A DNA stretch of 64,000 bases from Thermoanaerobaculia bacterium. GTDB taxonomy: Bacteria; Acidobacteriota; Thermoanaerobaculia; UBA5066. Positions 36,968-43,577 of the stretch are shown one piece after another; positions within the stretch are counted from its first letter, which is position 1, and each line of letters opens with the position of its first letter. The notes beneath the pieces were generated by a model. That model worked only from the letters and a program-made list of their open reading frames with translations. It was not told the origin of the DNA and ran no database searches. The stretch is taken from positions 1-64,000 of the forward strand of contig JBBRRY010000021.1 in NCBI GenBank assembly GCA_038245905.1. The letters run 5' to 3'. Both the position numbers and the translations under genes were made by a program.

Positions 36968-38374
36968 TCAAACCGGCGGCCTCTTCCGATGCCACTCAGT
37001 CCGCGCCTGGACCTGCGACCCGAGAGCCACGAGCGCTTCGTCCGAGAAGGCGCGGCCCGTGAACTGGAACGCGGTGGGAAGGTTGTTCTCGCCGAAGCCG
37101 TTCGGGACGACGAGCGCGGGCTGGCCGGCGAGGTTGCCGGCCGCAATGACGCCCGGCCCGCCGCTGATCCCCGGATAGACCTTGTCGAAGTCAGGCCCGA
37201 TCGGGTAGGAGACGGTCGCGCGCGCGGGCGAGACGAGCGCGTCGTACTTCGCGTAAAGCGCGTCGAGCGCCTTCTTCATCGGTGTGCGAAGGCGCATCGC
37301 CTGGATGTAGTCCACGGCGAACACCATCGAGGCCGCATAGCCGCCCCAGCGGTCGTTCGGGACCCTCAGCTCTCTCGCGCGGCCGCTCTCGACGAGGTCG
37401 CGGAACGCGCTCGCGCCCTCGGCCGCGACGATCGTCCCGACGGCGGGCCCGTACGGAAAGTCCGGGAACTCGACGTCCGGGACGACGTCGCAGAACGACC
37501 CGAGGACATTCAGCGACTCCTCGAAGTTCTTCCGGACCTCGGGCTGGACCTTCTCGGTCGTGCCCTTGATGACGCCGATCCGGGGGCGGCGCGGTTTCGC
37601 GCTCGCGGGCGCCGGGCGGAAGGCCCTGTTCAGCGAGGTCGCGTCGAGCGGGTCCTTGCCCGCGATCGCGGCCATGACGAGGCCGCAGTCTTCGGCGGTA
37701 CGGCACATCGGGCCGAGCTTGTCGAGCGTCCAGCAGAGCGCCATTGCGCCGTGCCGGCTCACGCGCCCATACGTGGGCCTGAGACCCGTGACGCCCGAGA
37801 AGGCCGCCGGCGTCACGATCGAGCCCGACGTCTCCGAGCCGATCGAGAACGCGACGAGGCCGGCAGCCGTCGCGGCACCCGGGCCCGACGACGAGCCGCC
37901 CGACCAGAAGTTCGTGTTCCAGGGCGTCCGGCCGGGTCCGGTGAAGGAGGCGTCCGCATTGTTGTAGCCGAACCCGCCCGCGAGCTCGACCATTGCGAGC
38001 TTCCCGGCGAGGACGGCCCCGGCCTCGCGGAGCCTCGCGACGACCGTCGCGTCGTAGTCGAAGACCTGATCGCGGAAGGGCTGCGCGCCCCACGTCGTCG
38101 GAATCGCCTTCGTCGCGAGGAGATCCTTGGCGCCGTAAGGGATGCCGTGGAGAGGCCCGCGCCACTTGTCTGCCAGGATCTCGGCCTCAGCCGCCCTGGC
38201 TTCCTGGAGCGCCCGTTCGCGCGTCACCGTCACGACGGCGCCGAGCTTTGGTCCGATCCGTTCGAGCCGCTCGAGGTACCCCTCCGCGAGTGCGACGGGG
38301 GAGAGTCTCTTCGCCCTGATCCTCGCGGACAAATCCCTGACGGAGAGGAAGAAGACCGATTCGTCGAGAGCCAT
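36968..38374 (-). CDS. Amidase-signature family enzyme (GatA/AtzE-like)
   Basis: GPLHGIPYGAKD, GGSSSG, IGSETSGSI, GLRPTYGRVSR; TGATG overlap. Confidence 0.9.
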   Translation of the reverse strand: MALDESVFFLSVRDLSARIRAKRLSPVALAEGYLERLERIGPKLGAVVTVTRERALQEARAAEAEILADKWRGPLHGIPYGAKDLLATKAIPTTWGAQPFRDQVFDYDATVVARLREAGAVLAGKLAMVELAGGFGYNNADASFTGPGRTPWNTNFWSGGSSSGPGAATAAGLVAFSIGSETSGSIVTPAAFSGVTGLRPTYGRVSRHGAMALCWTLDKLGPMCRTAEDCGLVMAAIAGKDPLDATSLNRAFRPAPASAKPRRPRIGVIKGTTEKVQPEVRKNFEESLNVLGSFCDVVPDVEFPDFPYGPAVGTIVAAEGASAFRDLVESGRARELRVPNDRWGGYAASMVFAVDYIQAMRLRTPMKKALDALYAKYDALVSPARATVSYPIGPDFDKVYPGISGGPGVIAAGNLAGQPALVVPNGFGENNLPTAFQFTGRAFSDEALVALGSQVQARTEWHRKRPPV

Positions 38375-38757
38375 CAGCGGCCTCCCGCGTTCTCGGCTGT
38401 TTCCGCGGAGAAGACGACGTCCGGTTCGTCGGCGTTCGCGAGATTGACCTTCTTCATGGCCTCGGCGCCCCTGAGGCGCTGGTCGAGACTTTTCGCAATG
38501 TCGCCGAGCTGCTCGCCCGAGAGGTTCTTCCCCCAGCGAATGCGAACGATCTCGGTGAGAGCCTCGGCGACAGAGGACGGCGCCGCCTCGGGCGTGGGGA
38601 CCGGGCTGGGAACGGCCGTGGGGGCAGCAGACGGCGTCGGCGCCGTCTGCCCGAGGGCGATGCCGGCCCCCGCGAGAGCGGGCGCGGCCGCCGCGAGCGC
38701 GAGACTTTTCGCGAATCCGCGTCGCGAGGGCGAGGGGGGCCGGATCGAATCGGACAT
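38374..38757 (-). CDS. Small Tat-signal protein, putative amidase partner (GatC/AtzG-like)
   Basis: SRRGFAK, Pro/Ala linker, C-terminal LANADEPDVVF; GGAGG SD. Confidence 0.75.
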   Translation of the reverse strand: MSDSIRPPSPSRRGFAKSLALAAAAPALAGAGIALGQTAPTPSAAPTAVPSPVPTPEAAPSSVAEALTEIVRIRWGKNLSGEQLGDIAKSLDQRLRGAEAMKKVNLANADEPDVVFSAETAENAGGR

Positions 38758-38798: not shown

Positions 38799-38827
38799 TT
38801 GATTCGAAGGGACGCGCTCCCCATACT
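38799..38827 (+). promoter_or_regulatory. Sigma70-type promoter for the gltB leader
   Basis: TTGATT, 17 nt spacer, CATACT, 9 nt before the leader ATG. Confidence 0.6.
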
Positions 38828-38836
38828 TCCGCCGCG

Positions 38837-38956
38837 ATGATGACTTCCTTGGCGACGGCCACCCGGACCCTCGAGACCTCGACTCGGTCGGGCCGGGGCG
38901 TCTCGGGCCTCGTCCTTATTAAGCGGTCCACGGTGGAGAGCGGGCGAGGGGACTAG
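38837..38956 (+). CDS. Putative attenuator leader peptide, 39 aa (MMTSLATATRTLETSTRSGRGVSGLVLIKRSTVESGRGD)
   Basis: Short ORF between promoter and terminator; CTC GTC CTT ATT codons coincide with the anti-antiterminator strand. Confidence 0.75.
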   Translation: MMTSLATATRTLETSTRSGRGVSGLVLIKRSTVESGRGD

Positions 38957-38979
38957 GCAGAAAGCCAAATGGAACCCCC

Positions 38980-39017
38980 AAAGCCCGCTCCCACGAGGGA
39001 GCGGGCTTTTTCATTTT
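38980..39017 (+). terminator. Intrinsic terminator (attenuator) upstream of gltB
   Basis: GCCCGCTCCC-ACGA-GGGAGCGGGC 10-bp stem followed by TTTTTCATTTT. Confidence 0.9.
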
Positions 39018-39050
39018 GTGAATCCTACGTTTGAGGAGAAGGGGAAGGGC

Positions 39051-43577
<4,527 letters not shown>

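Follow-up and report, generated by a model that had tools for sequence, protein, structure and literature searches.

A putative ribosome-coupled transcription attenuator ahead of the glutamate synthase gene gltB in Thermoanaerobaculia, centred on branched-chain amino acid codons but probably broader in what it senses

The large subunit of glutamate synthase is encoded by gltB on the forward strand of the window, by which we mean the whole analyzed stretch of 64,000 nucleotides of contig JBBRRY010000021.1. Its 1508-residue product scores 1593 bits with the NCBIfam model PRK11750 (cut-off, 1047), in agreement with the name given to the gene in an earlier note on this DNA. The promoter, 39-codon leader, alternative helices and terminator described there were all found at their positions upstream of gltB (Table 1), together with a fifth segment (segment 0) upstream of strand 1 that was absent from that description. 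No gltD over the cut-off of TIGR01317 or TIGR01318 was found in this genome or in four others searched, and the electron donor of such a gltD-less GltB might, at a guess, be ferredoxin. The genome also contains three matches to Glu/Leu/Phe/Val dehydrogenases and glnA, and no AsnB over the cut-off was found in it or in one relative (G001). A minus-strand pair at 36968-38757 diverges from gltB and consists of an ORF of 127 aa, with no NCBIfam match and an N terminus that we take to resemble a twin-arginine motif, followed by an amidase-family gene; this arrangement is also found in close relatives. The ilv/leu cluster of the genome (ilvD-ilvB-ilvC) is situated on a separate contig (C30) with its own attenuator. 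Hitch-hiking of the gltB attenuator on an ilv operon was considered and rejected, as a convergent gene follows gltB and no ilv/leu gene was recognized by eye just downstream in close relatives.

Table 1. Features of the gltB locus, in window coordinates.
Feature	Position	Strand	Remarks
Putative -35 box, TTGATT	38799..38804	+	
Putative -10 box, CATACT	38822..38827	+	17-nt spacer from the -35 box; CATAAT or GATAAT in three relatives
Leader ORF, 39 codons	38837..38956	+	ATG at 38837, TAG at 38954-56; 7 Thr codons
Distal leader part rich in Thr, perhaps a second stalling window	38840..38884	+	Thr enrichment; permissive in the folding model
Segment 0, forming the 0:1 hairpin with strand 1	38890..38899	+	
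Strand 1 with control codons Leu25-Val26-Leu27-Ile28	38908..38920	+	Leu-Val-Leu in 23/23 genus leaders
Strand 2, partner of strand 1 or of strand 3 (antiterminator)	38938..38951	+	
Strand 3, CCCC and 5' arm of the terminator	38976..38990	+	
Intrinsic terminator, 3:4 hairpin and U tract	38983..39016	+	hairpin 38983-39006, then T run
gltB, glutamate synthase large subunit	39051..43577	+	ATG at 39051; stand-alone; next gene convergent; no adjacent gltD

The nearest relatives of this GltB (78-95% identical) belong to Thermoanaerobaculia or Acidobacteriota, and the next ones (56-64% identical) almost all to Gemmatimonadota; a gltB match was found in 33 of 61 related genomes. Within the genus, leader and terminator stand before 16 of the 17 close-clade gltB loci, while the remaining member (L013, G023:C47:1-200) has wholly lost both, its promoter boxes being joined directly to gltB. 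For the wider survey, identical upstream regions were removed before counting, two loci (L216, L223) were dropped as they have no upstream sequence, and metagenome contigs were assigned to a type from their GltB identity, with the boundary at 70%, irrespective of taxonomy. On this basis the terminator occurs in 23 of 26 distinct Thermoanaerobaculia-type upstream regions, missing L013 and two loci from other genera that possess this gltB type without the leader (L017, L018). With the same core it also occurs in 113 of 118 distinct Gemmatimonadota-type regions, the five misses comprising three regions cut by contig ends, one variant terminator and one true miss (L183). The leader ORF accompanies the terminator in 134/136 regions, the other two being truncated. 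Both leader and helices of the earlier note have conserved counterparts in relatives. Clustering at 80% identity reduced the 133 leaders analyzed to 48 clusters, of which 8 are of Thermoanaerobaculia type and 40 of Gemmatimonadota type.

Motif scan and profile HMM detected no second copy of the gltB leader in this genome. The exact strand-1/strand-2 pattern is present in 25 of 301 genomes of the class, with the gltB-leader matches all within the genus. A covariance model built from the 48 leaders matches 38 of 121 Gemmatimonadota genomes; among the 30 loci fetched, all 27 scoring at least 40 bits precede gltB (several of them being training sequences), and the next three precede a HAD hydrolase (two) or pheA. 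Of the 141 Acidobacteriota genomes searched, 20 gave a match with E ≤0.001; this copy alone scores high, and gltB follows at none of 13 further loci inspected. Weaker matches of the model (L336, L337, L338, L347) precede HAD hydrolases, whose leaders contain Asn/His, and prephenate dehydratases, whose leaders contain Phe. At L317 (genome G356) the attenuator stands before a different type of gltB, the product of which shares just 42% identity with the query; this suggests that a leader can be retained along with the function even if the gene itself is exchanged. In a quick GltB tree of 64 rows, from which L016 and L019 were left out as broken or partial, the genus clade is placed beside, not inside, Gemmatimonadota, and as the base of the tree is unresolved we name no donor or direction of transfer.

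The two boxes assigned to the promoter match sigma-70 at 8 of 12 positions. A sigma-70 promoter scan called none in the leader region, where the boxes lie below its threshold, so the promoter of the earlier note is retained on conservation: both boxes are near-invariant in 23 homologous leaders. The leader start is found 9 nt past the -10 box in 22/23 genus homologues and none of the 23 has a Shine-Dalgarno-like word ahead of it, which points to leaderless or nearly leaderless translation; leaderless small-ORF attenuators are reportedly known in mycobacteria. All 23 homologues carry the ORF, with lengths of 33, 34, 36 or 39 codons, and its stop lies 29-32 nt from the terminator, a distance that differs by single bases. 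Since length changes of the ORF come in whole codons and those outside it in single bases, indels within the ORF keep the frame. A single frame with both start and stop in the right zone is present in 23/23 genus leaders and in 106/113 leaders of Gemmatimonadota type; the remaining seven comprise two with two qualifying frames and five that are too short. In the 40 Gemmatimonadota clusters, strand 2 is read in two frames in 18 and 17 cases and in the third in 5, a group for which the automatic anchor may be off. Such variation among lineages indicates that strand 2 is constrained as RNA, and Leu, Ile, Val and Asn persist just upstream of it despite its frame changes. Altogether, the evidence that the leader ORF is translated is indirect and consistent.

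Regarding RNA structure, the 1:2 helix joins strand 1 CCTCGTCC (38908-15) with GGGCGAGG (38942-49), and the 2:3 antiterminator joins GAGCGGGC (38938-45) with GCCCGCTC (38983-90), with extra pairing of GGGG (38948-51) and CCCC (38976-79). The antiterminator overlaps the 5' arm of the terminator, and in the model a ribosome that has reached the stop codon covers the 5' strand of the antiterminator. The mutually exclusive helices of the earlier note hold up unevenly in folding tests: the terminator (z -6.97, 0/200 shuffles as good) and the antiterminator segment (z -3.31, 1/200) exceed their shuffles, but the 1:2 segment is no stabler than shuffled sequence (z +0.40, 127/200). Because the folding of this single copy is indistinguishable from shuffles, the 1:2 helix is retained on conservation, being paired in 98.9% of 184 cells of the genus alignment against 48-75% for slid partners. 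For the antiterminator, the same alignment gives 96% paired among 276 cells (slid partners, 26-61%). When the 48 leaders from the two phyla are taken together, pairing is seen in 99.5% of 384 terminator cells and, with the Gemmatimonadota register applied, in 87% of 576 antiterminator cells; the inner helix of the antiterminator differs between the phyla (GGGG/CCCC vs CCGGG/CCCGG). Covariation is almost absent and uninformative, since the stems are nearly invariant: in the genus no pair of the antiterminator or the 1:2 helix changed on both sides, with one-sided G-U changes only, and the two double-sided changes across the 48 leaders are not above shuffles. Strand 3 has two partners to pair with and hardly varies, which accounts for this lack of covariation. 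Judged at the 5% level, segment 0 pairs with strand 1 better than shuffled versions do in 21/23 homologues; this copy is one of the two that fall short (0.11 vs shuffles; z -1.48).

These conserved elements bear on two explanations that do without a sensing ribosome. According to the first, the terminator would be switched by a ligand or a protein, as in a riboswitch or an ANTAR-like system, with the ORF being incidental; RNA switches on glutamate synthase genes do exist (accessible parts of PMC6003355 and PMC8632094), and short open frames are common in GC-rich DNA. We regard it as improbable, as no conserved aptamer-like region is present upstream of strand 1, the ORF has a fixed start, frame-keeping indels, a fixed stop zone and a codon bias, and no Rfam family reaches its gathering score in the window, including the Thr, Leu, Trp and His leaders, glnA, ykkC and T-box. 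Ten sub-threshold Rfam matches lie over the leader, the best being the PyrG, Thr and Trp leaders, with Thr_leader (RF00506) at 19 bits and Trp_leader (RF00513) at 15 bits, far below gathering. In the second explanation, the terminator would dampen expression to a constant degree, or would belong to a gene for a small peptide, gltB being expressed by leak-through or from another promoter. Although L013 shows that a loss of the leader can occur, this is the least probable of the explanations weighed here: the antiterminator is conserved, the leader peptide is poorly conserved outside its control run, and only 34 nt separate the U tract from the gltB start.

The effect of a ribosome on the folding was modelled with a 13-nt block, at equilibrium and with an assumed footprint (10-16 nt). 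In this copy, the probability of the terminator is 0.999 without translation and 1.00 from codon 30 on (13-nt footprint), and that of the antiterminator is 0.86-0.94 with the ribosome at codons 22-25, 0.37-0.79 at codons 26-28 and 0.00 from codon 30. The codons favouring the antiterminator (22-28) thus take in the Leu-Val-Leu-Ile run, the terminator being favoured past codon 29. For transcripts ending at strand 4, a permissive window lies over the control run in 20/21 distinct genus leaders, and a second, N-terminal one, beyond a non-permissive gap, is seen in 17/21 when the profiles are judged by eye. Among the 40 Gemmatimonadota leaders, 7 stay below an antiterminator probability of 0.3 throughout in the stricter equilibrium model, and many are already permissive with no ribosome present. 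In these models, the control codons appear to be sited so that stalling would free the antiterminator. When the transcript ends before strand 4, a stall anywhere up to about codon 30 is permissive, which agrees with a general sensor of translation slowdown, similar to that of whiB7, in which any stall upstream of strand 2 would cause read-through and codon bias would only tune the response. The mixed composition of the leaders and the precedent of the whiB7 upstream ORF (in the accessible part of PMC10274678) speak for such a sensor as well. On the other hand, the full-length folding places a gap of non-permissive codons between the two windows, a few codons are strongly enriched at specific positions, and Glu, Gln, Asp, Phe, Tyr, Trp and His are nearly absent from the sensing zone; we therefore consider a general slowdown sensor rather unlikely.

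As for the codons themselves, strand 1 lies on Leu-Val-Leu-Ile (codons 25-28), and the last two codons, CTT and ATT, are rare in the long ORFs of this genome (9.0% of Leu and 10.7% of Ile codons, respectively), as the earlier note had stated. These rare codons are not fixed in relatives, where CTT is found in 8/23 and ATT in 2/23 at the control positions. What is conserved is a Leu-Val-Leu-X run, with Leu-Val-Leu in every leader of the genus and Val (13), Thr (7) or Ile (3) in fourth place, so that the Leu-Val-Leu-Ile run stands in its first three residues and varies in the last. The Leu-Val-Leu codons coincide with strand 1 in the genus, and their invariance is thus explicable by RNA pairing alone; all changes at them are both synonymous and G-U tolerant. 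Leu, Val and Ile make up 34/48 of the six codons nearest the strand 2 boundary in the genus, and Leu, Ile and Val account for 72/229 codons in the permissive zone against 0/42 beyond it. Thr takes up 28/142 distal codons in the 8 genus leader clusters (z 7.0 vs base shuffles), and is not enriched at permissive positions (31/283 vs 65/458 at non-permissive ones). In the Gemmatimonadota, the 555 leader codons counted comprise 86 Leu, 79 Ala, 67 Asn, 54 Val, 53 Thr and 43 Ile, and Asn is the most over-represented residue of the gltB leaders (z 14.8), with 63/653 in the permissive zone vs 3/213 outside, and 0/358 past the boundary. The placement of Leu/Ile/Val in the genus and of Asn in Gemmatimonadota relative to the permissive zone is stable for footprints of 10, 13 and 16 nt. 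Because the relatedness of the leaders is left out of account in these composition tests, the p-values exaggerate the significance. One Glu and five Gln occur in the same 555 codons, and Glu plus Gln amount to 8/190 in the genus. U-ending codons are also enriched in the gltB leaders (ATT 33/43 of Ile, AAT 37/67 of Asn; in GltB itself, 48/498 and 59/370), an enrichment shared by the ilvD and leuA leaders.

Other attenuators of the same taxa offer a direct comparison. The ilvD attenuator of this genome (L308, G000:C30:29600-29770) is of the classical Leu/Val/Ile type, lies before ilvD-ilvB-ilvC and diverges from a LysR-like gene; it is found in all 25 family loci, of 30, that have upstream sequence. 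A Cys/Met-rich leader ORF with a terminator (L307, L361; G000:C11, minus strand, terminator end at about 72258) precedes a MetY-like Cys/Met PLP enzyme (Pfam PF01053), and was found in 20/20 genus genomes with a match among 21 searched. Cys/Met codons standing before a Cys/Met enzyme, the sibling attenuators thus carry cognate codons. The share of Leu/Ile/Val is 70/190 (37%) in the genus gltB leaders vs 206/346 (60%) in the genus ilvD leaders, and 33% in the Gemmatimonadota gltB leaders vs 193/274 (70%) in leuA leaders. Conversely, Thr occupies 30/190 codons of the genus gltB leaders vs 13/346 of the ilvD leaders, and Asn 67/555 of the Gemmatimonadota gltB leaders vs 5/274 of the leuA leaders. 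In the Gemmatimonadota, 28 of 66 gltB loci have leuA on the other strand; in both genomes opened, gltB stands head to head with a leuA-ilvB-ilvC-leuD-leuB operon, near glnA and ilvD, and this operon has its own Leu/Val-rich attenuator. Citramalate synthase genes near the Gemmatimonadota gltB carry Ile-rich leaders.

These data allow weighing a pure Leu/Val/Ile attenuator, borrowed from an ilvD cassette, in which the Thr, Ala and Asn codons would be incidental. The second-best match of the covariance model among the 141 Acidobacteriota genomes is the ilvD attenuator of this same genome (33.6 bits), and together with weak HMM matches to ilvD leaders this suggests that both leaders are a shared cassette. 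The ilvD leaders also carry a Leu-Val-Leu-Thr run and a similar terminator, and the predominance of Leu/Val/Ile close to strand 2, without an enrichment of Thr at permissive positions, argues in the same direction. Nonetheless, the gltB leaders are far poorer in Leu/Ile/Val and richer in Thr or Asn than the ilvD and leuA leaders, Thr takes the fourth control position in part of the genus, and the Asn codons of Gemmatimonadota keep to the permissive zone, so that a pure branched-chain sensor is unlikely, albeit the strongest of the alternatives. The dilution of Leu/Ile/Val together with the additional Thr or Asn indicates that the gltB leader is a broader sensor, not a copy of a branched-chain amino acid (BCAA) sensor. 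The label of a BCAA-type attenuator proposed in the earlier note is too narrow for the family, given the prominence of Asn in the Gemmatimonadota homologues.

As a rule, a leader-peptide attenuator responds to the end product of the pathway under its control. No Glu run, the product of the regulated enzyme, was found among the control codons here; the residues enriched here are instead consumers of glutamate nitrogen, made further downstream. For Leu, Ile, Val and Ala, the amino group comes directly from glutamate, and Thr and Asn receive glutamate nitrogen through aspartate, the second nitrogen of Asn coming from glutamine or ammonia. The codon set would therefore report a shortage of the amino donor. 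Two other sources of the codon bias were considered. A lack of asparaginyl-tRNA synthetase does not explain the Asn codons, as asnS was found over the cut-off in this genome and in 2/4 Gemmatimonadota genomes (split in a third); gatB is present in this genome and, overall, in 4/5 genomes tested. Sensing of the t6A tRNA modification, which concerns the ANN codons of Thr, Ile, Asn and Lys, misfits the enrichment of Leu, Val and Ala.

Taking everything together, a real, translated leader-peptide attenuator before gltB is very probable judging from the comparisons of leaders and helices, and the earlier reading of a ribosome-mediated attenuator with Leu/Val/Ile control codons continues to be the best description of the locus. 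If the attenuator is real, a BCAA-centred but broader codon logic is reasonably likely. For the overall reading, a ribosome-coupled transcription attenuator on gltB with BCAA-centred but broader sensing, we estimate a probability of about 0.58. The transcript would start 0-3 nt ahead of the leader ATG and be translated without a Shine-Dalgarno sequence. With charged tRNAs plentiful, the ribosome would reach the stop codon and cover strand 2, allowing the 3:4 terminator to form and keeping gltB low. A ribosome stalled on Leu-Val-Leu-Ile would instead cover strand 1, so that strands 2 and 3 could pair and the polymerase would read through. Stalls farther upstream may also give read-through, because segment 0 would then capture strand 1. 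The signal would be centred on Leu/Val/Ile and broader than that of the ilv/leu attenuators of the same cells, including Thr here and Asn and Ala in Gemmatimonadota; as the sensed amino acids draw their nitrogen from glutamate/glutamine, the switch would read amino-donor shortage through the customers of the donor and not through Glu/Gln codons. In short, ribosome stalling for want of Leu, Val, Ile and related amino acids probably raises the expression of gltB. More tentatively, the leaders of both phyla may constitute one attenuator family gauging the amino-donor supply indirectly, with a codon panel tuned by lineage, avoidance of Glu/Gln, a five-segment switch and two stalling windows.

The class of mechanism is a textbook one, represented by the enterobacterial thr, ilvGMEDA, ilvBN, leu and his attenuators with their 1:2, 2:3 and 3:4 geometry, several control amino acids and rare or wobble codons. 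The gltB leader shares these properties, and differs in its lack of a Shine-Dalgarno sequence, in control codons that do not correspond to the product of the enzyme and in falling outside the Rfam families; unlike pure BCAA attenuators, it is not dominated by Leu/Ile/Val and has no BCAA enzyme genes in its operon. The broadest prediction survey is said to be that of Lopatovskaya et al. from 2010. The closest described example, going by the accessible part of the source, is the ilvB1NC attenuator of M. tuberculosis, with LVVI as control codons, which reads through upon stalling (PMC13236596). Both the actinobacterial ilvB leader and the gltB leader comprise a short upstream ORF, a four-codon Leu/Val/Ile run and an antiterminator competing with an intrinsic terminator, a likeness of design for which no sequence homology is claimed. 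They differ in that the target here is not a BCAA enzyme, the leader is longer and mixed, with Thr or Asn, a 0:1 helix is present and other phyla are involved; in the accessible text of that paper, the single mention of gltB is unrelated (PMC13236596). The whiB7 upstream ORF of mycobacteria, as described in the part of the source at hand, responds to many amino acids while being enriched for one; it is alike in conserving composition, not sequence, and in tying amino-acid starvation to a transamination step, but it is enriched in Ala and targets a transcription factor (PMC10274678).

Other RNA- or protein-based systems acting on glutamate synthase genes are different in nature. According to the available portion of PMC6003355, the ppGpp riboswitch (ykkC subtype 2a) is associated with glutamate synthase in 15/105 and with BCAA genes in 78/105 examples; it likewise couples glutamate synthase/BCAA genes to amino-acid starvation at the RNA level, but through a ligand-binding aptamer, in Firmicutes and with no translated leader (PMC6003355). 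The glutamine riboswitch and the gltD motif are cis-acting RNAs before glutamate synthase genes which, in the portion of the source available, consist of an aptamer or a candidate aptamer, belong to other phyla and have no upstream ORF (PMC8632094). In E. coli, gltBDF is under Lrp, an activator protein acting at initiation, which also ties gltB to amino-acid sufficiency; being relatively leucine-insensitive, by the accessible account, it was discarded as a precedent for leucine/BCAA sensing at gltB (PMC1784095). CodY was likewise not taken as a precedent, as the accessible part of PMC11918324 does not show direct control. In the literature searched, mostly without subscription papers, no leader-peptide attenuator on gltB was found, and the available parts of PMC6892785 and PMC4833913 do not name one. 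Glutamate synthase is absent from the text of Naville and Gautheret (PMC2965389), in whose supplement six premature terminators without annotation stand upstream of glutamate synthase genes, none of them from Acidobacteriota or Gemmatimonadota. In this sense, the novelty lies in gltB as a target, in the indirect codon logic and in the spread over two phyla: a known attenuator device is placed on the amino-donor enzyme and carries codons for the customers of the donor. If true, central ammonia assimilation would have a nitrogen sensor that works through translation, coupling this process to amino-acid demand without any protein in abundant uncultured soil lineages, and linking BCAA and gltB by a route other than the ppGpp riboswitches of Firmicutes. 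Furthermore, the natural series of BCAA plus Thr, BCAA plus Asn and deleted leaders offers a test of how attenuators integrate several amino acids.

Lastly, a second gltB clade of the family (L024-L027, L030) carries a distinct 33-codon ORF in the region about 150-50 nt before the gltB match, its stop touching the gltB start and with no terminator noted; this ORF is absent at L028 and L029, and where present it is possibly involved in translational coupling to gltB.
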